NCBI GenBank assembly: GCA_016618385.1
Contig: JABFOP010000807.1
Span: forward strand, 216,216 to 280,215
DNA length: 64,000 bases
Source: Nymphon striatum
Taxonomy: Eukaryota
Direction of reading: 5' to 3'
A program made the position numbers and the translations under genes. The notes below the pieces were generated by a model that saw only the letters and a program-made list of their open reading frames with translations, made no database searches and was not told where the DNA came from. Each line of letters begins with the position of its first letter. Position 1 is the first letter of the stretch. Shown piece after piece: positions 3,306-63,985 of this stretch.

Positions 3306-4209
3306 TAGAAGGTAGGATAGCCGAATGGATCTTTCACTTGTGAGGGGTCTAGTTATTGATCCAGGTACGAATTTTATTCAAACCTTCCATCTTTCATTCA
3401 TTCTTTACCTTGTGTATTATTGTACATCCCTCTCTGTTACTAGATACATGTAAGATGGTGGTAAATGTCAGATGTCAGAATTTTAAAAGGCCAAATGTCT
3501 CAATTCAAAAAAATTTTAAATGTCAAAATTACTGAACATGAGTAGTGGTTATCACCGAATGTAAATAAACCGGCAAAACACAAATAATGTAACCAAATGG
3601 TATAAATCGCATATAATATCTCATATCAGATGGTCAAATCGAAATTAGAATGAATAATCGTTTGTCAGGTCTAAAAAATTGATATCAGTCATCATGTGGA
3701 AAAACGTATGTCTGACTTTATTTTAGAGTAAAAATCGAATATCGAATGTGAAATAGGTCCAATATCAGCTATCGAAAAATCCCTTTACCCCTCTCGTGTA
3801 AAGACTTAAGTATTTGTCTACATGACCTTTATAGTCATTCATAGTTTTTGCCTCAACGGCAGCCTCGATGGCCTTTCGTAATAGTATTACTAATTACAAA
3901 AAAGGCTTCAGTTCTTTTTTTGTTTTTTTTTTCTTTTTTTTTTTATTTTTTTATTATTTTTTCTTTTTAAATGTTTTTAATGTGGAAGTAAGCGGCTCTA
4001 TTATGAAATATGGCGGCTATTTTAGCCGCTAGCTGCCTTCAAACGACATGACATGCCTGATCTTAGAGCCATAAGGATAATTTCAGTTGTTTTTCTTTTT
4101 GTTTTTAATTTACTGTTTATTTGAATTATACTTTGTTGATTTATTTTCTTTCCATGTTTTTTTTATAATTTTGTTTTTTTTAGTTTCATTTGTTTATAAT
4201 TTTTTACAG

Positions 4210-14235: not shown

Positions 14236-14294
14236 AGCAACGATCACTCATTCTATATCCTCTATATATATACAGTCCTGATGATACAGTTCTG

Positions 14295-15062
14295 ATGGCA
14301 AAAACACCAACTGAGCTTCAAGATATTCTTGACAAGATAAAATACCGGAGTGAGCTAGGGGGACTAAAAATGAACATCAAGAAAACAAAAGTTATGGTTG
14401 TCAGCCGTAATAAAGAGCAAATCAAAGTAAACATCAACATTGACAAACAACAGCTAGAACAAGTTTCTTCATTCACCTACCTTGGTCACCTCATCACAGA
14501 AGATGGGAAGTGCAAAAAGGAAATAAAGAAAAGAATAGAAATTGCTCGCTCAAAATTTAACAGCATTAAAAAGGTACTTTGCTCACAGGCCATCAGGAAG
14601 AGTACCCGAGTGAGACTATTAAAGGCATATTTATAGTCATCGTTACTGTATGCAAGTGAAACGTGGACATTAAATAAAATGACAATAACAAGACTCGAGG
14701 CATTTGAAATGTACATGTATCGAAGGATTCTCAAGATTCCTTGGACTGACAAAATAACTAACGAACAAGTCCTAGGTAGGATGAACACCACCAGAATAAT
14801 AATAGACACCATCAAATGTAGAAAGGCAAAGTACTTCGGTCATGTAATCAGGCATAATGATATGCAAAATATCATGATGTTTGCAAAGATCGAGGGCAAA
14901 CGACCTAGAGCTAGACCACGCCTTACATGGATGGATAACATCAAAGAATGGACTAATTGCAGCATCCATGAGTGCAGTGAGAGAGCGCAAGACCGGGATG
15001 TGTGGAGGGCAATGGCAGACAACCTACTACGGAGTAGACGTCAATGAACTGAACTGAAATAT
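14295..15062 (+). mobile_element. RTE-like LINE, 5'-truncated 3' portion (RT C-terminal domain), ending in a (GAACT)n-like tail
   Basis: ORFs 14295-14636 and 14679-15047 carry the motifs FTYLG..EDGKCKKEIKKRI..A and LLYASETWTL...FEMYMYRRILKIPWTDKITNEQVL...KYFGHVIRH...GKRPRARPRLTWMD. The element ends ..ctacggagtagacgtcaatgaactgaactgaaat. Confidence 0.7.
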
Positions 15063-15825
15063 ATATACAAACTGGCATGATACATGAAACTGAAAGCTGA
15101 AGACAACACCTGAGCTAGACTTCAATTCCATGATGAAATTTTGAAGCTGCATCTATAGAATTGTCCGAAGAAACCCAAGTGCCTTTTTGAAATTATTCTA
15201 GAGAGAATGTCTTGATGGAAGAAATTAATGTAGTGTCAATTGGGTTTTAAACTATTGAATCCACTAATAAACTTCAAAATAGCTTCAAGGCTCCAAAACC
15301 GAATCTTAAGAGATTAATCTCGTGAGCTCAGAAACTATCAAAGTAATGAAATGTTACGATGTTTGAAAATTTTGATATACGGGCATTCTTTGATTAGAAT
15401 TGAAGTGGTGATTGAAACAATGTGTTTTTGTTGTTTGGTTAGTGAAGATTATCTTATTTGAAATATATAAATAATGAATACAGTCTAATCTAATACAAAA
15501 TATTAAGAAAATCAAAATACCCAGAAAGTAGAAAGCTGATTATATGGTGTGATTATATGCTTCCACAAACAATTTCTCACAATATTTTTGGCTTTTTCAA
15601 GTACATATTTCATTACACAAGGGTGATAAAGTAATACCACAGCTCCATGCTACAAATAGAAGATAAAAACACAAGATACAAACAACACATCATTTTTGAA
15701 ACCATAATTAAACAAAGAAGATTTGACAAATTAATTGCACGTATCAGAAAACACAAAATAGAAACTCTTTTGACTTTTACTGTGCCCTCACATCAGAAAA
15801 GTAATAGGCTTAAATTTTAGAAAAA

Positions 15826-16966
15826 ATGTGTCTGAAGCAGCCTTCATCATCATCAGCCCGTATTGGCCCACTGCTGAGAAAAGGCCTCTCGTCTAGATCT
15901 CCAGTCCTCTCTATCGGCAGCTCTTTCAACCCAATCCTTGTCAAACTTAGCGATATCATCCACCCACCTTCTCTTCGGTTTACCTCGTTTTCTTCCTCCC
16001 CTATCTGTTATCCACATTGTGGATTTAGTGGTCCATCTATCGTCTGTTCTACGGGTCAAGTGTCCAGCCCAGTTCCACTTGCTACTCTTCACTGTCTGGG
16101 TCAAATCTTTACACCCTGTCCTCACCCAACTATTAGTCTTTCTATCCCTCCAGCTCACACCTAAGATCTTTCTTTCCATACTGTGTTGGGCACTCGCCAA
16201 TTTCTTCAACAAGGTATCTGTAATTGCCCAGGTCTCTGACTCATACGCTAGTACAGGCAGGACACATTGGTCATATACCTTCCGCTTCAAGCAGAGAGGT
16301 AGCTTGCTGCTCCAAACATTGTTCAGGCGACCAAAAGCTTGCCAGCCTAGGGCAACACGTTGCCTTACTTCAGGCTCCCAGTCTCTGTGTATTGAGATAA
16401 GCTGCCCTAAATAAATATATCTATCAACTTGGTCCAAGGCCACATTTCCTGTCATAATCGGTTGGATTTCTACATTTCTGTTAAACATGACCTTAGTCTT
16501 ACTCAAATTAATCTCTAAACGTACTTTATTACTGGCAGTTCTCAGTTCCTGAACCATAAGTTGAAGCTCCTGAGGGGACTCCGAGAACAGGACTACATCG
16601 TCGGCAAACCTGAGGTTGGTCAGTCTATCGCCATTTATGGGGAATCCTTTAGAAGTCCAGTTTAAGCATCTAAATACATTTTCCAAGCAAGCTGTAAATA
16701 GTTTTAGAGATATAGAATCTCCCTGTCTCTAATCTAATCTTATTTTTATTGGTATGAAGCTTTATATTAGAAGTTCCAAGTCCAAAAATTTGGTCCAGCA
16801 TTCTTATGTATGCTGGGGAAATAGTTCCGGCATTTAAGGCATTTAGTACAGCCTGATGCTCTACTGAGTCAAACGCCTTCTTGTAATCTATAAAAGCTAG
16901 GCACAGGGGTAGACTATATTCATGATATTTTTCAATCACTTGATTGACTGTATGGATGTGATCCAA
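15826..16966 (-). mobile_element. LINE (non-LTR) reverse-transcriptase fragment, 5'-truncated, lying tail-to-tail with the LINE at 14295-15062
   Basis: ORFs 16670-16966 (AFIDYKKAFDSVEH, RT domains 1-2) and 15853-16686 (FADDVVLF, RT domain 5, and the C-terminus ..WAGHLTRR..GKPKRRWVDDI). The 3' end on the plus strand reads catcatcatca, i.e. a (TGA/ATG)n-like tail. Confidence 0.7.
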
Positions 16967-27097: not shown

Positions 27098-27240
27098 ATG
27101 AATGTAAAAAGACGAGATGCCGATGATGCAAGTATATTCAGAATTCCCCCTTACCACTTTATCCATGTCTTGGATCAAACATCAAATGTCACACGTATCG
27201 AAACAGGACCAAAAACTTTTATTAGACAAGAAAATGAAAA
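27098..27240 (+). CDS. MVP: MVP exon 1 (start codon; [47 protein letters not shown]..)
   Basis: Clear match to the major vault protein N-terminus ([34 protein letters not shown] in vertebrates). Donor gtatat. Anchored to track ORF 27117-27653. Confidence 0.85.
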
Positions 27241-27316
27241 GTATATTTCTTCAGATTATTTTGACTGAAATTACCTATTTTACAATTATATTAACATACC
27301 TCATTATTTTATATAG

Positions 27317-27633
27317 AGTTTTGTTTGGTCCTGATAAAATGATTATTGTTCCTCCTCATCATTATTGTGTGATTCAAAATCCTGTAGTTCGAAATGATAA
27401 AAGTGAAATTCAACTTGACTTTGTCGGACAAGTCAAACTGCAACATGCCGAATTGGAAATTCGCCTACCTCAAGACCCTTTCCCTCTTTACCCTGGTGAA
27501 GTTTTATCAAAGCCAGTTTCACCATTAAAAGTTGTAGCTACAAATTCAGCTCTTAGGCTGCGGGCAATTAGAGATTTTACTGATGGTGCTACTTCTAGAG
27601 TCGCTGGAGATGAATGGTTGTTTGAAGGTCCAG
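27317..27633 (+). CDS. MVP: MVP exon 2 ([23 protein letters not shown]...[10 protein letters not shown])
   Basis: First vault repeat (MVP shoulder/repeat domain). Phase matches exon 1. Anchored to the same track ORF. Confidence 0.9.
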
Positions 27634-27745
27634 GTAAAAATCTTGTTTTATGATAATCACTCTGCAATAATAATAATATTAAAGAATAAAAATAACCATC
27701 AAGTAGTTGTTTCTGTATCTAATAACTATTTTTACGTTGATTTAG

Positions 27746-27972
27746 GTACGTACATTCCACGAAAAGAGGTTGAGTTCGTTGAAAAAATTCGAGCCACAAC
27801 TATTCTTGTCAATCAAGCCCTCAAGCTTCGTGCTCAAATGGAACTGCAAGATCGTGATGGCAAAACCAGAGTTACTGGTGAAGAGTGGCTTGTTCGTCGA
27901 ACTGGGGCATACCTTCCTAGTGCTTATGAAGAAGTTGTTACTGTTGTTGATGCTTATGTTTTGACTGAGAAG
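27746..27972 (+). CDS. MVP: MVP exon 3 ([21 protein letters not shown]...[33 protein letters not shown])
   Basis: Anchored to track ORF 27583-27996. Conserved TGEEWLV and AYLP motifs. Confidence 0.9.
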
Positions 27973-28377
27973 GTAGCAAATGAGACACTATATTAATTTT
28001 ATTTATTCTTATCTATGAAGTAGATCATTTTCTAATGATAAAGGAATACCTTTTTATTTAAGGAATAATTCCTAACACGCACCGTCATTTTGGTGGTCAA
28101 ATTATGTGAATTAAATGAAGCATTAGTTTACAAATCAAATCAGTCATATCATCAAAATTTAGTAAAATTCAATCTTAACTGACCTGAACAGACAAGAGGT
28201 TTCTCTGTTTACAGTTGCAAGGCACCTAATGTTAAGGCAAGGAGACAGAATCTAACAAAGCTTTGATTATAGATAATAACAGGAACTTATGAAATTATGT
28301 TGAAGAAATATTTATCCAGTAATGCACCAATAGAATATTTTCGGATATTGAAAATAATTGTGAATTCCTTTAGGTCA

Positions 28378-29260: not shown

Positions 29261-29400
29261 CCTTTTTCAATTTAGGAAAATGCTGCTTGATTAGACTTTA
29301 TGATACATCTAAGTTAATTTTACAAGTTTTACAGATTTTGTTTCCTATTCTACCTTACTTCACAAATTCTCAAAATATTTTTTATCGATTTAAATTACAG

Positions 29401-29637
29401 GAAGCCATTCATGTTCGAGCTACCAGATCATTTACGGATATTCTTGGAAAATCTCATAAAAATGGCGAAGAATGGTTAGTATCATTGGCTGATACTGAGA
29501 CATACATACCTGATGTTTACGAAGAGGTTGTTGGAGTAATTAATATAACTACTCTCACCAACAGAGAATATTGTGTCATTCTGAATCCATGTGATGCTGG
29601 TGGAAAGCCTCAGTTAGGACAGAAAAAATTGGTTGAG
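29401..29637 (+). CDS. MVP: MVP exon 4 (EAIHVRATRSFTD...NGEEWLVSLADTETYIPDVYEEVVGVINITTL..YCVILNP..GKPQLGQKKLVE)
   Basis: Anchored to track ORF 29287-29664. Conserved YCVILDP and NQLGQKR motifs of MVP. Confidence 0.9.
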
Positions 29638-30931: not shown

Positions 30932-31063
30932 GGAGAAAAATCTTTTTTTTTGCTGCCTGGAGAAGAATTGGAACAAGGTATTAGATCTGTGTATGTTCTC
31001 AGTGAAACCGAGGGACTTATTTTAAGAGCATCACAAGCATTTAATGATGATAATGTAACATCA
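30932..31063 (+). CDS. MVP: MVP exon 5 ([44 protein letters not shown])
   Basis: Anchored to track ORF 30950-31369. GEKSFFL.PGE.LEQGI is the conserved MVP block. Confidence 0.9.
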
Positions 31064-31144
31064 GTAAGTATTATTGTCTGGATTTTATTTATTTATCTAT
31101 TTACTCATTTTAAAATTAATATTTTACCTCTCCTGTTTTTACAG

Positions 31145-31294
31145 AAAGTAAGAAGGTCACCTGGTGATACATGGATGATTAGAGGGCCTTGTGACTACAT
31201 CCCACCTATTGAAGTTGAGGTGTTATCTCAAAGAGATGCTATTCCATTAGATGATACTGAAGGTATCTATGTTCAAGATGTCAAAAGTGGAAAG
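31145..31294 (+). CDS. MVP: MVP exon 6 ([50 protein letters not shown]), followed by a GC donor
   Basis: Conserved WLIRGP..Y.P...[26 protein letters not shown]. The exon must end after GGAAAG to keep frame with exon 7, and the following bases are GCAAGC, indicating a GC-AG intron. Confidence 0.8.
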
Positions 31295-31446
31295 GCAAGC
31301 TTATACTATTATTATACTGTTTTTAAACCTTATTTTAGCCATTACATATTTTCAAAAAGTGTTTGCTAAGACTATTACTTTTTATTCAACTTACTATATA
31401 CATTTTTTAAATACATCATTAATATTATCCAATTCATTTTTAACAG

Positions 31447-31688
31447 ATAAGAGCAGTATGTGGTGAGACCTACATGCTTACTCAAGATGAAGAGTTATGG
31501 TCAAAGCCCCTTCCACCAGTAGTTGAAGAACTGCTTCAGCAAAATAGGGACCCTTTGAGTGATAGAGGTACTCGGAAAATTACTCCTTCTAGTGAAACAG
31601 AAAAGCGAGATAAAACTTATGTGGTGACATTCCGTGTTCCCCACAATGCAGTTGTTCAAATTTATGATTACAAAGAAAAAAAAGCAAG
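31447..31688 (+). CDS. MVP: MVP exon 7 (IRAVCGETYMLTQDEELWSKPLPPVVEELL...VPHNAVVQIYDYKEKKAR)
   Basis: Anchored to track ORF 31474-31737. Conserved YMLTQDE.LWEKELP and VPHNAAVQVYDY.EKRAR. Confidence 0.9.
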
Positions 31689-31902
31689 GTATTATTTTTT
31701 TCTATTAATAATTAATAATATGTGGAAATCTGAATGATATAACTATAAAATTTTGGGACAGAATCAATTTAAAATTTTGGAGACATGTTCATGTTTCTGT
31801 TTGTCATAATAAATGTTTTGGTGTATGAAGAAATTTAAGAAAAGATTGTAGCGACTAATATGTTTTGTGAATCTATCGTGGAAAAGTTTGATCTTGTAAA
31901 GG

Positions 31903-32513
31903 TAAGAGGTAAGAGGGCGCGGTGGCTCAGTGGTTAAGATCGCTATTCTGGGCCTGAAGAACCCAGGTTTGAATCTGACTCCAACCCCACCACTTTTTCA
32001 CCGTTTACGTTGTGTATTATCGTGCTCTCCTCTCTAATATCATACGTAGGCCGATTTTAGAGAGAAAATACTCCGTCCCTCGGATAGGACGTTAAATGGA
32101 GGTCCCGTGTAAAGGAGAGTCACACCCTATGCACGTTAAAGAACACACTTCACTATTTGAATAAAGAGTAGGGTGATCCCGGTGAAGTGTAGCACCTGCG
32201 AGAATGTGAAGGTCAGGTCAGGTCCCACCTGCTACTGGTACCATGTAAACCAGTACTACCTGTCTCATGGTCGGCGACTAAACCGGCTCCCCCACTTGGT
32301 TACCTTGGTGACCTAGTGAGGAGGGTGTGTGGTCACCCCGCAGGACTAAAAACAAGACCTGTCAAAGGGCAGATGAGCTCCTAGCGAGCCAACGGCCATC
32401 CATATCCGGAGAGGGGTTGGAAACCACCGGATTACTTCCACTGAAACACAATGATGAATACTCATCAAAGTGCCCCAACGGCCAACAGGCTACGGGAGTG
32501 AACTGAACTGACT
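31903..32513 (+). mobile_element. tRNA-derived SINE (about 610 bp) with a 3' tail ..CTACGGGAGTGAACTGAACTGAC, in MVP intron 7
   Basis: The 5' head gggcgcggtggctcagtggttaagatcgct...ggtttgaatc carries A-box and B-box-like motifs. The 3' end is shared with the RTE-like LINE at 15047-15062. Flanked by direct repeats of about 55 bp at 31848-31902 and 32514-32568. Confidence 0.65.
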
Positions 32514-32937
32514 GTAGCGACTAATATGTTTTGTGAATCTGTCGTGGAAAAGTTTGTTCTTGTAAAGACGTTTTGTTACTTGAAGAATACCTAAAAGATT
32601 GAAAAATTCTACTTTGTTTTATCAAACATTCGTTATTCACTTTACCTTTACTGAAATATGTTTATAAATTTCTTAGTTACCCATCAAACCTGCTTAAACA
32701 AGGCGAGTTTGTTTCCTTATCATGAATTAATTGATTACGTTCCCCACCAATTTTGAAGTGTGTGAAACTCGCATGCATGTCAAACAGATGCCTATTTTTT
32801 TTTTTGTATGTATGTATGTAGGGATGCCAGGTCCAAATAGCATTGTATGTACAAAAAAGTAGTAAGTTCACATTCATTGGCATCCCTACATAGTCTTTTT
32901 ATTTAGAGTAAATTTGTTTGCGTAATTTTTCTTGTTT

Positions 32938-33677: not shown

Positions 33678-33741
33678 GTATCAACTTTTGCAATGTGAAC
33701 ATGTGAACATTTTCTTATTCTCATCTCCGTTTCTCTCTTAG

Positions 33742-33939
33742 GTTTATATTTGGTCCTGATTTGGTAATGTTGGGTCCAAGTGAGCAGTTTACTAAACTCA
33801 GCTTATCTGGAGGAAAGCCAAAGAGACCAAATGTTATCAAGGCTCTAGCCTTGTTGTTGGGACCAGATTTCTGCACAGATATTGTTATTGTTGAAACTGC
33901 TGATCATGCTAGGCTTCAATTGCAATTGTCTTATAACTG
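33742..33939 (+). CDS. MVP: MVP exon 8 ([66 protein letters not shown])
   Basis: Anchored to track ORF 33761-33943. Near-identical to the vertebrate block [30 protein letters not shown]. Confidence 0.9.
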
Positions 33940-34036
33940 GTAATTAATGTTTTCTTCATTTACCAATCTTTTCAGCCTTAGATCTCAAGTGTCAAGATGT
34001 AAATTATCCTTATAAACAACATATTTGAATCATCAG

Positions 34037-34178
34037 GTACTTTGAAGTTAAAGATCACAATGCAGAAACTGCTGCTAAATTATTCAGTGTACCAGATTTT
34101 ATTGGTGATGCATGCAAAGCAATTGCATCCCGTATCAGAGGCGCTGTTGCTAGTGTTCAATTTGATGACTTTCACAAA
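34037..34178 (+). CDS. MVP: MVP exon 9 ([47 protein letters not shown])
   Basis: Matches [34 protein letters not shown]. Acceptor cag, donor gtttgt; coordinates read from the sequence. Confidence 0.85.
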
Positions 34179-34265
34179 GTTTGTTCCCTAACATTTATTT
34201 TATTTTCTCTATTTTCATTACATTAATGAAGATATATATATATTTATTATATTCTGTTTTCCCAG

Positions 34266-34477
34266 AATTCTGCCAAAATTATCCGTGCTTCTGTTTTTGG
34301 ATACGATGAAAGTTCCAAGATCCGATCATCTTTTACCTTTAAACAAAATGGTTTAACCATCACAAGCGTTGATATCCAATCTGTCGAACCTGTTGATCAA
34401 AGAACCAGAGACTCTTTGCAAAAATCTGTGCAGCTTGCAATTGAAATCACTACAAATTCTCAGGAAGCAGCTGCAAA
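34266..34477 (+). CDS. MVP: MVP exon 10 ([18 protein letters not shown]...[37 protein letters not shown])
   Basis: Matches [38 protein letters not shown]. Phase-2 donor gtaatt. Confidence 0.85.
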
Positions 34478-34706
34478 GTAATTACCATCAATGTCTTAAT
34501 TTAGCATGTGCTTGAATGTTTAAAAAAAAGTAGAGTGTGATGTTTTAGTGTAATGTGAGGGGAACGATAATTCCTAAAGATTCACTTTTTATGGTTGGAT
34601 TCAAAGTTAGCAAAACATTTATGAGAATTGTAAATCTGTTTTTTAAGTAATTTTGATACTTTTTCATCATCAGTAGCCTCATGTTTTATCATCAAATACT
34701 TTTCAG

Positions 34707-49839: not shown

Positions 49840-50090
49840 TGCATGAACTTCCTATCAGATGCAGGCTGGTTCGGCAGAGAAAGTACTCTGTCCCTTGGAT
49901 AGAATGTCAATGGGGTTCCTGCAAAAAATGTTCTATAGGATTTATAGGACCCGAGTATCCTATAGAACAGTCCTATGGGATTCTATATGATTTTATAGAG
50001 TTTTAGGACCAGAGTTCTGTAGAACATTTTTTGCAGGGACCCCATTCACATTCTATCCAAGGGACAGAGTACTTTCTCTGCTGAACCAGC
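49840..50090. mobile_element. Foldback element (about 250 bp palindrome)
   Basis: cagagaaagtactctgtcccttggatagaatgt..tgcaaaaaatgttctatagga mirrored by ..cagaacattttttgcaggg..acattctatccaagggacagagtactttctctg. Confidence 0.6.
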
Positions 50091-50258: not shown

Positions 50259-50450
50259 TGTAACGACAGTGATCGACGACATCCGGCCGCCTTCTTTTTC
50301 CTCCCCCGTATGTCCCCGAGCCATACGGGGAATTTATTTACATAAATCATTTTGTTTAATCACCTGTATATATTGCTTCTTTCATTCAAATAAATTCATT
50401 CTATTTTAGTTAACACAAGGAGTCTCTTTCCTTTCTCTCCTTGCGTTACA
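50259..50450 (+). repeat. 5' LTR (192 bp)
   Basis: TG..CA termini. Identical by eye to 54460-54651. Confidence 0.9.
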
Positions 50451-51361
50451 CTGGTGACCCTGACGTGATTATGGACACTGATACCACCATCAAAGCCGAA
50501 GACACTTCTCCGCCGGCCGTTGTCCATGCCGCTGCAGTCCGCCTACCGACATTTGCACCGAATGAGACCCTCACCTGGTTCCGCCGTGCCGAAACTCAGT
50601 TTCGACTGAAACATGTCTCCGTTTCATCTACCATGTCCGACTACGTTCTGGAGGCACTACCAGAAAGCGTATTCCGGCGTATTTCTCCATGGTTGGACGA
50701 GCAGCCTGACATTATTCCATACAAGACGTTGAAAATACACCTCCTGGACGTGTATTCTCTTTCTCCATCTGACCGTGCCAGACGCATTCTTGCCATGCCA
50801 GGACTACCACTTGGAGACCGTACTGCTACCCAAGTTTGGGAGGAGATTACTTCTCTGTGCCGCCTTCCAAGACTAGACGACGACGATACCTCTCATTCTG
50901 TTCTTGATTTAAAGAAGGAAGTTTGGCTGCAATGTTTGCCATGACCACATCCGCTCCCTTTTGCACGACTCTACCACCACGTCAATGGACAAGCTCTCAA
51001 AAAAAGCGGATGCTCTGATTGACGCTCACCGTATGGCACACGGTGCTCCATCCGTGTCATCAATCCAGATCAGTTCTTTTCCTCCAACTTCTTTTCCTTG
51101 CAACCAGTTCTTTTCCTCCAACTCCACATAGTTTCCTCTGTATGTTCGTGTTCTGTGCTCAAACATTCCGCTAAAGATGATGATTCTTCCGAGGTTAATG
51201 CTACACAACAACGCCCTGCTCAGTTCCAGAAACGTTTTCAACCATTTGGAAAATTAACTGCCTCCGGTATCTGCACTTATCATTTGCATTTCGGTAAACG
51301 TGCACGATCTTGCGTCGCCGGCTGCTCATGGTCAAAAAACGGGCCAAGCGGCCGCTCTTAG
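50441..51361 (+). CDS. gag region of the LTR element, split over three frames (50441-50944 in frame A; about 50940-51128 in frame B; 51098-51361 in frame A, containing CTYHLHFGKRARSC, a zinc-knuckle-like motif)
   Basis: Track ORFs 50441-50944 and 51098-51361 share a frame but are separated by stops. The intervening segment is open in another frame (..DKLSKKADALIDAHRMAHGAPSVSS..). This suggests a +1/-1 pair of frameshifts, or recoding. Confidence 0.5.
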
Positions 51362-54300
51362 TGGACGCGGCCGCCCAGTGTTCTGTTATACCGATCACCC
51401 GAACTTCTGCTACACATCCGGATGCTCCTACTACCACCCACAGTGCCTCCTGCTTTCCCCATCCGGGGTTTTCCATTAAAGACGAGATTTCTCAAAAAGA
51501 ATTTCTAGTCGACACCGGCGCTTTCAAATCTATTTTTCCGGTCTCTGTGCACGAGAAGGTGAACATCTCTACATGCGGTTTGGACTTAGTCGCCGCCAAC
51601 GGCACCGCTATCCGGACCCATGGGGAACGTAACATTCATCTTCGTTTCCATGGACGCAATTACTTTTGGACCTTCATTCTCGCTGACGTTTCGCGCCCAC
51701 TCCTAGGCGCTGATTTCCTTTCACACCACCACCTCATGGTCGATGTTGCCGGCCGTAAACTAATCGATACAGACTCTTTCCGTTCGTTTCCACTCTCCAA
51801 TCGCAGTGCATCTGTTATAGGCGAAATCTCCGCATGCAAACCACCGGCTGGTCGTTATACCGGCCTCGTGACCGAATTTGCTGACGTTTTCAAGCCGGAA
51901 TTGCATCTCTCGTCAAGTGTTGCAGCTAAACACGGCGTATACCACCACATCGAGACTACCGGACCGCCCGTCTACTCTAAGTTTCGCCGCCTTCGCCCTG
52001 ACCGACTGCAAGCTGCCAAAGCCGCTTTTGCCGAAATGGTACGTATGGGTATATGCTCGAAAGCCGCTAGTCCTTGGGCCACTCCTTTGCTCTTAGTCCA
52101 AAAACCCGATGGTACTTGGCGCCCTTGCGGGGACTACCGACGTCTCAATATGGTTACCGTACCGGATCATTACCCTATGCCCAATATTGCCGATCTAACC
52201 GCGTGCATCGGTAATACGCGTATTTTTTCTAAATTAGACCTGTTAAAAGGATATTTCCAAGTTCCGGTATATCCTGACGATGTGCCGAAGACCGCCATTA
52301 TAACACCTTTCGGCTCCTATGTTTTCCACTATTCCACCTTTGGCCTGCGTAACAGCGGTGCCACCTTTCAGCGGATGATGGACCTCATTTTTGGAGAACT
52401 TTCCTTCTGTATTGTATATGTGGACGATGTCTTGATTTTCTCTAAAAATCACAACGACCACATGGAACATCTTCGAACAATTCTCCTGCTTCTCAGGAAC
52501 AATGGTCTCGTTGTCCGTCCTGACAAGTGTACCTTTGGTGCTACTCAGGTTGAATTTCTCGGTTACGATATCTCGGCTAGCGGTATCCGCCCTCGCAAGC
52601 AAAAAGTAGATGCGATCATCAATTTCCCTCGCCCGACATCTATTCGCGGTGTTCAAGAATTTCTTGGTATCTTGAATTTTTACCATCGTTTCATCCCACA
52701 CGCTGCTGACATTTTTGACCCATTGTACGAGACTACCGCCCATAAATCGAAAGATCTGTTGTGGGGTCCACCTCAGGACAAAGCTTTTGAGGCCGCTAAG
52801 GTTTCCATCGTTTCTGCCGCTACTCTTGCTTATCCGCTCCCTAACCTCCCTTTATACCTCACTACTGATGCGAGCAATATTGCTTTGGGTGCTGTCGTTG
52901 AGCAAGAAGTTGGGGGTCAGCGTAGACCACTTGCTTTCTTTAGCCGTAAGCTCCGGCCGCCAGAACGCCGTTACAGCACGTTCGACCGGGAGTTACTCGC
53001 TGTCCACTTATCCGTCCGTCATTTTCGCCACTTGCTGGACGGGATGGCTTATACCATCTGTACCGACCACAAGCCGTTAGTCTCTGCCCTGACCAAGCCC
53101 ACTGATGCTTGGTCCGATCGCCAGCGTCGGCAACTGTCTGCAATTGCAGAAACCTCCTGCACCATTCAACACTTGCCTGGTAAAAACAACCCTGTAGCAG
53201 ACTCTCTATCACGCATAGAAATTGCTTCCGTCCTAATGGGCGTTGATTATTCGGCCCTATCAGCCGAACAGGAGCGCGACTCCCAAATCGCCGCATTCAA
53301 ATCCACTCCCGGGAGCCTGAAGTTGAAATCTGTCCCGTTTGGCGACACCCACGTCCTCTGCGATATAAGCACCGGCCGTCCACGCCCAATCGTGCCTACA
53401 TGTTTCCGCCGCCTGATTTTCGACGTCATTCACGGTCTTGCCCACCCATCCATTCGTAAGACCACCAAGTTGATGACTGATAAATTTGTGTGGACCTCCA
53501 TCCGGAAGGACTCTAGCACATGGTCCCGCTGCTGCGTACAGTGTCAACGGAGTAAAATCCACCGTCATACTAAATCTATGATTGGCCGTTTTCCCCCTAC
53601 AACCCGGAGATTTTCGCACATCCATGTCGATATCGTCGGACCTCTACCACCTTCCGAAGGTTTCCGGTATTTATTCACTATCGTTGACCGTTCTACACGA
53701 TGGCTAGAAGCTGTGCCTATGGAAGACGCCACGACTACCTCTTGCGTCGCTGCATTACTCCATACCTGGATATCCCGTTTCGGCGTTCCCGACGATATCA
53801 CCTCCGACCGCGGCTCTGTTTTCACGTCCGAATTGTGGTCTACTTTGTCTCGGTTACTAGGAACTTCTCTTCACCACACTACCAGCTATCATCCTCAGGC
53901 CAATGGCATGGTTGAAAGATCACACCGTACGCTAAAGACTGCTCTTGTTGCCCGCTGTTCCGGCGATAGATGGGTTACTCATCTGCCATGGATCTTATTG
54001 GGTCTTCGCACAACGCCCATAGATGTACTTTCGTATTCCTCTGCCGAGATGGTATATGGTGAACCTCTGGTCGTTCCCGGTGAATTTTTCCCCACTCAGC
54101 TCTCGCATGATTGCAACATCGCACGACTGAGGGAAATTGCCGGTCGCTTTGCTCCGTCACGACCGACTCGTGACCATCAACGACATTCCTACGTCCCAAA
54201 AGACCTACGCTCGTGCGATTTCGTTTTCATCCGACACGACGCCTCTAAGCCGCCACTGTCGCCGGCATACAAAGGCCCGTACCGCGTACTCGAACGCCGT

Positions 54301-54447
54301 GACAAATCATTTTATATACAGCTCGGTGTAAAACAGGACTGGGTCTCAATTGACCGTTTAAAGCCGGCCTACATTTCGACGTCCGAATTGGACGACGGGA
54401 CCTATACCCGCTCCGGTCGTCTTTCTCGTCCCGCGACTCGTTTTTAA
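51310..54447 (+). CDS. pol polyprotein of the LTR element (protease DTGA, RT YVDDVLIFS, RNase H, integrase HH-CC zinc finger and DDE core)
   Basis: The 1045-aa ORF contains the motifs LVDTGAFKSIF, LDLLKGYFQVPV, YVDDVLIFS, ..TDASNIALGAVV.. and an integrase core. It overlaps the last gag ORF by about 50 nt in a different frame (a frameshift site). Confidence 0.9.
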   Translation: MRRRLLMVKKRAKRPLLVDAAAQCSVIPITRTSATHPDAPTTTHSASCFPHPGFSIKDEISQKEFLVDTGAFKSIFPVSVHEKVNISTCGLDLVAANGTAIRTHGERNIHLRFHGRNYFWTFILADVSRPLLGADFLSHHHLMVDVAGRKLIDTDSFRSFPLSNRSASVIGEISACKPPAGRYTGLVTEFADVFKPELHLSSSVAAKHGVYHHIETTGPPVYSKFRRLRPDRLQAAKAAFAEMVRMGICSKAASPWATPLLLVQKPDGTWRPCGDYRRLNMVTVPDHYPMPNIADLTACIGNTRIFSKLDLLKGYFQVPVYPDDVPKTAIITPFGSYVFHYSTFGLRNSGATFQRMMDLIFGELSFCIVYVDDVLIFSKNHNDHMEHLRTILLLLRNNGLVVRPDKCTFGATQVEFLGYDISASGIRPRKQKVDAIINFPRPTSIRGVQEFLGILNFYHRFIPHAADIFDPLYETTAHKSKDLLWGPPQDKAFEAAKVSIVSAATLAYPLPNLPLYLTTDASNIALGAVVEQEVGGQRRPLAFFSRKLRPPERRYSTFDRELLAVHLSVRHFRHLLDGMAYTICTDHKPLVSALTKPTDAWSDRQRRQLSAIAETSCTIQHLPGKNNPVADSLSRIEIASVLMGVDYSALSAEQERDSQIAAFKSTPGSLKLKSVPFGDTHVLCDISTGRPRPIVPTCFRRLIFDVIHGLAHPSIRKTTKLMTDKFVWTSIRKDSSTWSRCCVQCQRSKIHRHTKSMIGRFPPTTRRFSHIHVDIVGPLPPSEGFRYLFTIVDRSTRWLEAVPMEDATTTSCVAALLHTWISRFGVPDDITSDRGSVFTSELWSTLSRLLGTSLHHTTSYHPQANGMVERSHRTLKTALVARCSGDRWVTHLPWILLGLRTTPIDVLSYSSAEMVYGEPLVVPGEFFPTQLSHDCNIARLREIAGRFAPSRPTRDHQRHSYVPKDLRSCDFVFIRHDASKPPLSPAYKGPYRVLERRDKSFYIQLGVKQDWVSIDRLKPAYISTSELDDGTYTRSGRLSRPATRF

Positions 54448-56689: not shown

Positions 56690-57140
56690 CCTTAAAGGTT
56701 CATTTGGAGTTATCCTCCATCTTCCTATTTAGACTTTAGGAAGAGTTGGAGGGAGAAGAAATTATCAGCAAGAAATATTCAGCTGGGGAAGAATCCCCAA
56801 ACTATCTTACATCAATTCAGCGCAAATTAATGCACCGACTCCTCATACAGAGGAATTCCCTCTCATTTAAGCTGTAAAACTAGTTCAGATAAGAAAATAT
56901 TCTGTCCCCCACATAGACAATTAATGGAGGTCTCGTGTAGAGGATAATCATAACCTCTACACATTAAAGAACTCACTTTATTATTAGAAAAAGAGTAGGG
57001 TGTAGGGCCCGGTGAAATGGTGCACCTCAATTACATAAAAACCCATAAGAGGTGAATAGCCCTCACCTCAGATGCCCGGGTCCTCCTCGCTCCTTGATAC
57101 AGAATGAGAGAATTCATGCAAGGACCTAAGTGGTCAAATC
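56690..57140 (+). mobile_element. SINE-like interspersed repeat, copy 2 (in an AKAP10 intron)
   Basis: Shares its 5' block with 44815-45130. The central block (ggaggtctcgtgtagagg..agagtagggtgtagggcccggtgaaatggtgcacctc) is homologous to the body of the SINE at 32100-32200. Confidence 0.45.
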
Positions 57141-61560: not shown

Positions 61561-63535
61561 AGTAATTTTTTTTTAATCTGAAAAAAAAAAATTCAAAAAA
61601 AAAATTTCTATGCTAAACAAATTGCTGAGAAATGGTGTTCTGTGAAAGAGAGACGAATCTTCTCCAATTAAGAACAGACTTCAGTCGTGAAATTATGATA
61701 ATGATCATCAGAAATTATGAATAAAGTAAGTAAACATGCAAAACAAAGTCTTCATAAAGCATAAAATGACAATATGGGCGGGCAGGCAGTAAACTGTTTT
61801 ATTCTCATAAAAGTGTAATCTTTTTAGTAATAAAGACATACAAGTTTGAAAATTTTAAAATTATGGCTACATGTGACCTGTGGGTTACCTGTATCAAAAA
61901 ATGTATTTTTATATTATCTTGATATAAAGTTAACATGATCAATCAAAGACGACCTTGCATATTTAAAAAAAATTATAATTGTGATTTGATCATGTTTAAC
62001 TTTTGTCAAGTCCAGAAGAATGTTAGGTTAGTTTTCAGTCTCTGATTGGTGTAACATGTGGTCACTCTAATTGCTTATTACTTTTCCCCATGGTGCTCCA
62101 GAATGGCTTCATTTTATCACACAAAATCTTTTTTTTTTCTCTAAAAAACAGGCATAAGTTCCCTCGGCTGAAGCTTTGCATTTGATTTATCGTCACATGA
62201 TGGTGCCCAAACGTTTTCCCTGGATTTGGCCCTGGTTGCTGAAAGCTATATCCACTAATATTTTGATGGTTTCTTCTATTGGATCATTCGTGAATAAAGA
62301 CTTGACATTATACGAAATCAACACATCTGTGGATTGAATATGGGTGTGAATATGCGTAGCTCTTCGAAGAAGTTGAAAATATCATTGATGCAGAATTCGT
62401 TGACCGATAATGATTTGAGCTTGTCGTCCAACCATTTTGCGAGATTGGTCTCATGGATAATTCATTCTTGTGGGTTCATAACTAGAAAGAAAACGATTGG
62501 CTTTAGTAGAAATTCTGTCATTATTTCAGACATGATTTTTTTTCAAACATATAAACAATCTATTTTTTCGAAAAACAGAACTCAAACAAAATTTAATTGC
62601 ATGTCTCCATCTAACAGAATGTTTAACATAGTCCAGAAAATTACACTTTCTTCAAATATGTTGTCCAATGGATTGACCAACGGTCATGTGTTTGATGTTG
62701 AGGACCTATAATTGAAGTTTGTATTACACGAGACATTTTTTAATAAAATTTTACTTTTACATTTCAGTTGCCTTAGTTATTTTCTAGTAATTTTTAAAAA
62801 AGAGAACCACAAAGTTTCAAGATTGCTGTTTTGTTTTCAGTCTTGGTGGCTTACAACAAAAGAATTAAAAACATAACACACATTGTGCTAAGAATAAATA
62901 TTATATGTATTGCAAGGTTTGCCAAGATGCAAAATTGAAAAATAAATTTGCAATGGCAGGTACTTGTAACAAATGTTAACGTTAGTGTTATATGGGGAGA
63001 TAAACAATCAGAATCGTAGGAAATTATATTATTTTCACTTTGAAAATGCGTCAAAATTTGCATTCTTGATCGTGGCATTGATCAAGCTTTTCAATGAAGA
63101 GTGGTAAATTTATCATCTATTTAATCCAAGTATAGTTTCATTCAAATGGAGGGAATTATATATGTTTGCATAACTTTCAAACACAGCAGCTAGATCTTAC
63201 AGATATGTACACACAGTTGTCTGCATGTTTTATCTGGAAAAAAAAGGATCAAATTTACAATGTCTGCTGTAAAATATTTACATATCAGCAAAGAACTTAT
63301 TTTCAATTAACAGGTTTTGATTGCAAAAAATTCCTGATTTGGTCCTTTAATGAAAGCACTGGTTCAACTATAATCTTCTAAAAATAATATCAATCTACTA
63401 AAAGAGATATTAAAATACATCCTCTACCCATAAAGTTTAAAAAATAAAAGTTAAAAAAATATAGATTGCATTTCCAAAGAAAGACAGATCACAAATAAAG
63501 AAAAGTTATTTCAGAAAAAGAAAAGCAAAGCATAC

Positions 63536-63985
63536 TTTCTCCTAGTTTTTCTGAAAGGTCTATTTCATCTTTGGATGACACCTTGTTGATTATATTTATC
63601 GAAGTCTCTGTTCTATTACAATCATTAGATTTATCAACTATAGATGAGCTTGATGATTGAAAAATATCATTTTTTTTGGATATGTCAGGAACGGCATTTC
63701 CAACACTAGAATCACATATTTTAGATGGATGACACACAGGAACTTCTTTATCATTGTTTAATTTTTTGTGACTAGCTAAAGTCTGAGAACGGCTAACAGT
63801 AGATGCTAGAAAACTTTCAGCATCAAGCCAAAATTTGATGAATCTATCAGCTTTACAAGAGTCTAAATATTGTATGAAGTATGCCAAAGCACTGTGATCA
63901 TTAACTAATTCCTGAATAGATTTTGATAGGCGTGACTTTGTCCGTGAGAGAATGGAAGCAACTTTTTCATTATAGGAAGACATGG
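63536..63985 (-). CDS. AKAP10: AKAP10 large 5' exon, first RGS domain (MSSYNEKV..LSKSIQELVNDHSALAYFIQYLDSCKADRFIKFWLDAESF...KLGE); ATG at 63981-63983 immediately after an acceptor
   Basis: Track ORF 63489-63983 (minus) matches LSKTLEQVLHDTIVLPYFIQFMELRRMEHLVKFWLEAESF. Donor a|gtatgc at 63535. Its splice phase joins the exon at 60858-60956 (..KLGE-S-IQKD). Confidence 0.8.

Follow-up and report, generated by a model that had tools for sequence, protein, structure and literature searches.

SINEs partnered with BovB, a LINE of the RTE clade, share a sizeable LINE-derived 3' segment with that LINE, and the RTE-1 element of C. elegans is associated with very long target-site duplications, a case that was not used in the present analysis. 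The BovB partner SINEs, Bov-tA in ruminants and Sauria SINE in squamates, are tRNA-derived and end in a simple repeat. BovB itself is almost without a 3' UTR and terminates in a repeat of the (CTGAA)n type (PMC6007223, table 2), and its duplications, ~10-12 bp in length, tend to start with A (PMC6007223). For RTE elements, the same source, citing Ichiyanagi and Okada 2008, gives duplications that for the most part measure 7-15 bp, the mode being 10-12 bp. In the lepidopteran elements HmRTE, BmRTE and HzRTE-1, the stop codon is immediately succeeded by a short simple repeat, for example (TGA)n or (CTT)n; 5'-truncated copies are located in introns, and the duplications measure 10-20 bp. In the searched passages of the paper describing them (PMC2887409), a SINE partner is not mentioned. 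The idea that long duplications are typical of RTE elements was considered and rejected, as the lengths given are 7-15 bp (PMC6007223), 10-12 bp (PMC1291365) and 10-20 bp (PMC2887409). Two further papers considered as reports of long duplications (PMC4408412 and PMC5711953) were irrelevant, their wording being '4-nt long' and '5-6 nt long', respectively.

Target-primed reverse transcription by L1 is known to give rise to very long duplications and to additional nucleotides at the 5' junction. The extreme duplications, of tens to hundreds of bp, reflect a long stagger between the breaks in the first and second strands, and extra 5'-junction nucleotides accompany ~12-15% of L1 insertions (PMC2912911; PMC1291365). 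A modular SINE architecture, in which a tRNA head is followed by a conserved central domain and a variable 3' body and tail, is known from the CORE, V, Deu, Ceph, Nin-DC, MESC and Snail superfamilies (PMC4758252). The repeats of sea spiders are largely unclassified (PMC12220506).

The window, i.e. the whole 64-kb stretch of Nymphon striatum DNA that was analysed, is eukaryotic and has a GC content of 33.6%. Exons of a major vault protein gene, the best homologues of which (snail, spider and coral) are ~65% identical, extend on the + strand from ~27.1 kb to at least 35 kb. Look-ups by exact protein sequence gave no entry for two exon ORFs of the window or for three Nymphon striatum proteins. 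The exons include the following:

27113-27241, + strand: major vault protein exon
27315-27635, + strand: major vault protein exon
27715-27978, + strand: major vault protein exon
29383-29637, + strand: major vault protein exon
30932-31294, + strand: major vault protein exon
31444-31698, + strand: major vault protein exon
33716-33964, + strand: major vault protein exon
34041-34478, + strand: major vault protein exon

Two other coding regions were seen elsewhere in the window. An LTR-retrotransposon coding region lies at 50441-54447 on the + strand and consists of a DUF7041 ORF (50441-50944) and an intact pol of 1045 aa (51310-54447) with reverse transcriptase, RNase H and integrase domains. An exon-like ORF at 63489-63983 on the - strand weakly resembles the beginning of an RGS domain, with a score (E = 1.3e-4) that narrowly misses the Pfam cut-off.

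The intron between the exon ending near 31698 and the exon starting near 33716 contains, in sense orientation with the host gene, an insert of 611 bp that is made up of a 14-nt filler and a 597-nt element. Two direct repeats flank the insert, and the repeats and the insert together form a 721-bp structure with the following parts:

31847-31901, + strand: 5' unit of the direct repeats, interpreted as a target-site duplication; 55 bp, start possibly at 31844, GC 33%
31902-31915, + strand: filler at the 5' junction; 14 nt, GTAAGAG GTAAGAG
31916-31990, + strand: tRNA-related head; 75 nt, with pol III A and B boxes, followed by a T5 run
31993-32202, + strand: central domain; ~200 nt, also present in six or more further degenerate SINE-like sequences of the window
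32203-32498, + strand: GC-rich 3' body; ~300 nt, single copy in the window and without LINE coding similarity
32499-32511, + strand: terminal pentanucleotide repeat TGAACTGAACTGA, followed by C at 32512
32513-32567, + strand: 3' unit of the direct repeats, interpreted as a target-site duplication; identical to 31847-31901 at 53 of 55 positions

The head had been described in the first-pass annotation as tRNA-like, with A and B boxes. The A box TGGCTCAGTGG (31923-31933) matches TRGCNNAGTGG exactly, and the B box GGTTTGAATCT (31966-31976) departs from GGTTCGANNCC at two positions; with a start-to-start spacing of 43 nt, the two boxes have the arrangement of an internal pol III promoter. As the A box places the tRNA +1 at 31916, directly after the filler, this copy of the element is full length. 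No cloverleaf was detected in the head, for which ARAGORN reported 0 genes and the Rfam tRNA model gave no match at E values up to 10, and the fold of the head is no more stable than those of shuffled sequences (z = +1.2). Rfam and ARAGORN likewise returned no meaningful tRNA or RNA family over positions 31700-32700. The boxes named in that description were borne out, and the head can be termed tRNA-like only loosely, at the level of its boxes and its length.

No ORF in the 597-nt element is longer than 59 aa. The body of this copy is not free of potential terminators, since it includes runs of five T (31991-31995) and four T (32055-32058), which could end pol III transcription early. The direct repeats adjoin the filler and head on one side and the (TGAAC)n end on the other, giving the flanking duplication and simple-repeat 3' end of a SINE. 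Identification of the insert as a SINE is thus supported, as judged from its sequence, by the tRNA-related head with pol III boxes, the repeated central domain, the simple-repeat tail and the flanking duplication.

The filler is positioned upstream of the tRNA +1 defined by the A box, and has no counterpart on the 3' side. Joined to the GTAAAG that closes the repeat, it makes up a tandem array with a period of 7 nt (TRF: 3.1 copies, 31896-31916). On the sense strand of the host gene and ~200 nt into the intron, the filler GTAAGAGGTAAGAG and the AAAG that precedes it also produce two consecutive consensus-like 5' splice sites, AG/GTAAGA (31896-31916).

The nearly identical 55-bp repeats reported in the first-pass annotation are real and differ at two positions (96% identity), but they lie one base further to the left than reported there. 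Aligned at 31848-31902 and 32514-32568, they have three mismatches rather than two, and the last base falls outside the repeat. BLAST and a repeat search stretched the match to 58 bp (31844-31901 and 32510-32567, three mismatches), and it reaches 63 nt weakly. The extension past 55 bp arises because the tail of the element, GAACTGAC, is similar to the target, GAAAAGAT, just as the GAC that ends the insert is similar to GAT in the target. No third copy of the 55-mer is present within the 64-kb window, and chance is therefore excluded as the source of the similarity. The GC content is 33-35% in the repeats and 30-33% in the intron, as compared with 51% in the element, and the repeats are situated outside both the tRNA +1 and the terminal simple repeat. 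Given this intron-like composition and this position, duplication of the target site is the simplest explanation, and the 55-bp repeats are best read in this way.

The same features bear on the possibility that the 55-mers belong, as terminal direct repeats, to the mobile element and its consensus and not to the host. The ends of the element are defined from one full copy alone, which leaves room for such an arrangement. However, both the GC content and the location of the repeats speak against it, and the 55-mer is absent near all of the six or more other copies of the central domain in the window; the proposal is highly improbable. An origin of the duplication in assembly or haplotype stitching, at a heterozygous insertion, has nothing positive in its favour. 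Such an artefact is scarcely credible for a structure in which the two copies of the repeat differ at two positions and the junctions look like those of real retroposition, with a simple-repeat tail on one side and a filler on the other.

Two explanations had been offered for the length of the repeat, namely an atypical integration or insertion into a pre-existing local duplication. The former is a fair description, whereas the latter is less parsimonious, as it leaves the SINE without a duplication of its own. Some history of local duplication may exist at the site, where the segment 31814-31879, upstream of and inside the first repeat, resembles the segment 32570-32633 downstream of the second with a score that was reached by 6 of 1000 shuffles. 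This weak ~90-bp period in the flanks hints at an older, degenerate tandem duplication of ~90 bp. Nevertheless, for the 55-mer to have been present in tandem beforehand, the SINE would have to have inserted with base-exact precision at the junction of the two copies, and neither the end of the first repeat nor the start of the second is repeated across the element. In addition, the 55-mers are 96% identical as compared with ~65-75% for the older similarity. A tandem 55-mer that predates the SINE is therefore very unlikely.

With a target-site duplication as the preferred reading, its length is exceptional, and the observation that 55 bp is far above the normal size was confirmed. Published RTE-clade duplications are mostly 7-15 bp, the majority being 13 bp or less (PMC6007223), and a LINE copy in the same window has an apparent duplication of 11 bp; at 55-58 bp, the duplication at the SINE is ~5 times the RTE norm and ~5 times that of the LINE copy. 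The presence of only two mismatches over 55 bp indicates that the insertion is fairly young relative to the other copies of the central domain, which are ~77% identical.

The central domain was found by nhmmer at six further places in the window, with E values of 1e-26 to 3e-3:

29135-28932, - strand: central-domain copy
56856-57027, + strand: central-domain copy
50136-50031, - strand: central-domain copy
49851-49924, + strand: central-domain copy
13176-13070, - strand: central-domain copy
3359-3443, + strand: central-domain copy, with B-box-like sequence upstream

These copies are ~100-200 nt long, and their flanks are different or degenerate; two of them form an inverted pair ~100 nt apart (49.85-50.14 kb). 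The 3' body and tail of the element are found in none of the six. When the SINE, translated in six frames, was used as a protein query, the only two matches were to Nymphon striatum gene models for 'Protein timeless', both within the central domain, a piece of which is translated inside these models (25 of 31 residues identical); the 3' body had no protein match in this search. Across the window nhmmer search, the protein query and the pattern scans, the central domain is thus multi-copy, whereas the 3' body and the full-length element were each found once. As the central domain recurs in the window and in N. striatum gene models, the element probably belongs to a repeat family.

Outside N. 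striatum, exact-pattern scans with a 23-mer from the head gave 0 matches in viral contigs and 0 in GTDB genomes, and two central-domain patterns gave 0 and 0 matches in JGI metagenomes. A central 16-mer had 19 matches in viral contigs, all of which were judged by BLAST to be due to chance. No relevant paper was found in a literature search for the central-domain sequence. The SINE probably represents an undescribed family. The same central domain is joined to different flanks at the other loci in the window, as in the central-domain superfamilies (PMC4758252), with which the element also has the order of tRNA head, central domain and 3' body with tail in common. At ~200 nt, the domain is longer than those described, which are 45-150 bp (PMC4758252), the comparison being one of length and description only. 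It may be a lineage-specific conserved SINE domain.

Three RTE-like LINE fragments were identified in the window, and one of them has the same terminal repeat as the SINE:

14264-14274, + strand: 5' copy of the apparent 11-bp duplication ATATATATACA of the LINE, read from the sequence
14275-15058, + strand: 5'-truncated RTE-like LINE; C-terminal reverse transcriptase portion that extends from the xDD box as far as the stop and is interrupted by one in-frame stop
15059-15069, + strand: 3' copy of the apparent 11-bp duplication ATATATATACA of the LINE, read from the sequence
1578-1950, - strand: further RTE-like LINE fragment; the ORF runs into a (TGA)3-4 terminal repeat
15853-16966, - strand: further RTE-like LINE fragment; the ORF runs into (TGA)3-4, ~800 bp from the (TGAAC)n LINE and on the opposite strand

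The first of these fragments is the RTE-like LINE that had been annotated at 14295-15062, for which 14275-15058 are the better bounds. Its reverse transcriptase is of the non-LTR type (C-terminal part of RVT_1, E = 7e-6), the score being below the Pfam cut-off because the copy is truncated. Of the 75 homologues of the fragment, the full ones contain RVT_1, and the best protein match is a Nymphon striatum gene model with 94% identity over the covered part; identities to the others are at most 56%. The terminal TGAACTGAACTGA (15045-15057) supplies the stop codon with its first TGA (15045-15047), and the 3' UTR therefore consists of the short repeat plus one base, without poly(A), as is usual for RTE elements. 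The apparent 11-bp target-site duplication is held with moderate confidence because ATATATATACA is low in complexity. The location of the stop codon, the near absence of a 3' UTR, the lack of poly(A) and the apparent duplication are the RTE-clade features on which the term RTE-like is based.

These features resemble those of BovB in several respects. Like BovB, the LINE is almost devoid of a 3' UTR, its repeat is the (CTGAA)n motif in another register (PMC6007223, table 2), and its apparent duplication is 11 bp long and starts with A. The SINE is comparable to Bov-tA and Sauria SINE in its tRNA-related head and simple-repeat end. The arrangement of a stop codon followed by a short repeat is also comparable between the LINEs in the window and the lepidopteran RTEs (PMC2887409). 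Two of the window fragments end in (TGA)n like the lepidopteran elements, whereas the family paired with the SINE has a pentanucleotide repeat. In related LINEs from unrelated public assemblies, the ORF is followed directly by (GGTAA)2 in L020 (3790-3820) and by (TGA)5 in L021 (1170-1195). Within this LINE lineage, the terminal repeat is evidently quick to change.

The first-pass annotation quoted the 3' ends of the SINE and of the LINE correctly, as was established by direct reading, and considered the shared 3' tail to mark the two as a SINE/LINE partner pair. In the best local alignment, the two 3' ends match over precisely the 13-nt repeat TGAACTGAACTGA, which is identical at the end of both elements and occurs nowhere else in the window. 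Similarly, GAACTGAACTGA is found in the window only at the 3' ends of the SINE and of the LINE at 14275-15058, the number of matches expected even with one mismatch being 0.23. Upstream of the repeat, the similarity is not significant. The resemblance CTACGG..AGT that had been included in the shared tail is at the level of chance, as the best local alignment left in the 3' 100 nt once the repeat was removed, CTAC(G)GGAGT, was reached by 775 of 1000 shuffles. A looser alignment of 26 nt (19 of 26 identical) had p ~0.03-0.07 in the proximal 40 nt only and was not significant in larger windows. Nor was a remnant of LINE coding sequence found in the SINE body by blastx against 76 LINE proteins. 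Thus, significant 3' similarity is confined to the terminal repeat in this comparison, which is between single diverged copies. BovB partner SINEs differ in having a sizeable 3' segment in common with the LINE, as opposed to 13 nt of simple repeat in the present case. The identical terminal repeat retained from the original proposal makes a pairing of the SINE with this LINE plausible, on the strength of the simple repeat.

Another family that has this repeat may be the actual partner. In one such explanation, the SINE has a true long duplication but was mobilised by an unseen LINE ending in the same or a similar repeat, and the 13 nt in common with the local LINE are convergent or generic to RTE-type elements. 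Both the chance-level similarity outside the 13-nt repeat and the missing coding remnant agree with this, as does the use of (CTGAA)n by the unrelated vertebrate BovB (PMC6007223, table 2), from which it follows that the repeat alone does not name a family. However, the repeat is specific in the window to the LINE at 14275-15058, (TGA)n being the terminal repeat of the other two fragments, and the related LINEs from other assemblies have either (TGA)n or (GGTAA)n. We regard an unseen partner as unlikely. As the terminal repeat varies among LINE families and that of the SINE is the one found in the local family, the evidence rather supports mobilisation of the SINE by an RTE-type element ending in the same repeat.

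The preferred reading of the locus, which we consider probable, is that a full-length 597-nt tRNA-related SINE inserted in sense into an intron of the major vault protein gene by RTE-type target-primed reverse transcription, the SINE RNA and the RNA of the mobilising element having the same pentanucleotide end. A nick in the bottom strand at 31844-31847, or close by, would have started the process; the target there (..AAAAGAT) and the end of the RNA (..CTGA) have a GA microhomology in common. The SINE RNA would then have been copied up to its own 5' end. The top strand would have been broken 55-58 nt downstream rather than at the usual ~10 nt, and filling in of this long stagger would have produced the 55-bp duplication. 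Finally, the 5' junction would have been sealed with the 14-nt filler, which repeats a motif like that at the end of the target (GTAAAG / GTAAGAG / GTAAGAG). This likeness to the neighbouring target end indicates slippage, or else repair synthesis from a template, as the source of the filler. The filler and the long stagger together suggest an irregular second-strand step that was completed by host repair synthesis. In this scheme, the sequence shows the anatomy of the insert, the duplication with its intron-like composition, the filler and the identical terminal repeat, and we infer the enzyme source, the order of the nicks and the repair origin of the filler.

The long stagger has a parallel in the extreme duplications and 5'-junction additions of L1 (PMC2912911; PMC1291365). 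The L1 cases differ in that they depend on the machinery of L1 and have poly(A) tails, many of them having been obtained in cultured cells, whereas the machinery here would be RTE-like. As the apparent 11-bp duplication of the local LINE is within the published RTE range, the 55-bp duplication is therefore an outlier relative to that range, yet one that is precedented for target-primed reverse transcription.

The original observation is confirmed, and its interpretation is supported in part. We read the locus as an ordinary kind of SINE/LINE system, in which a tRNA-related SINE depends on an RTE-type LINE, with one unusual but precedented insertion signature. Partnerships between SINEs and RTE elements, tails of simple repeats and the occasional very long duplication are already established, and a single event leaves this knowledge unchanged. 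A broader claim would be that the RTE-type machinery of this genome regularly breaks the top strand tens of bases downstream when this SINE is mobilised in trans, giving the family duplications several-fold longer than those of any described RTE-dependent SINE, and/or that the ~200-nt domain is an undescribed conserved SINE domain of sea spiders or chelicerates; this is quite unlikely. If the preferred reading is correct, the locus would be a single-locus example of a tRNA-related SINE borrowing an RTE-type LINE in sea spiders. It would also mean that an RTE-type insertion can carry both a duplication of ~5 times the normal size and a 5' filler that looks templated, and would bear on how the second-strand break and 5' joining take place in target-primed reverse transcription.
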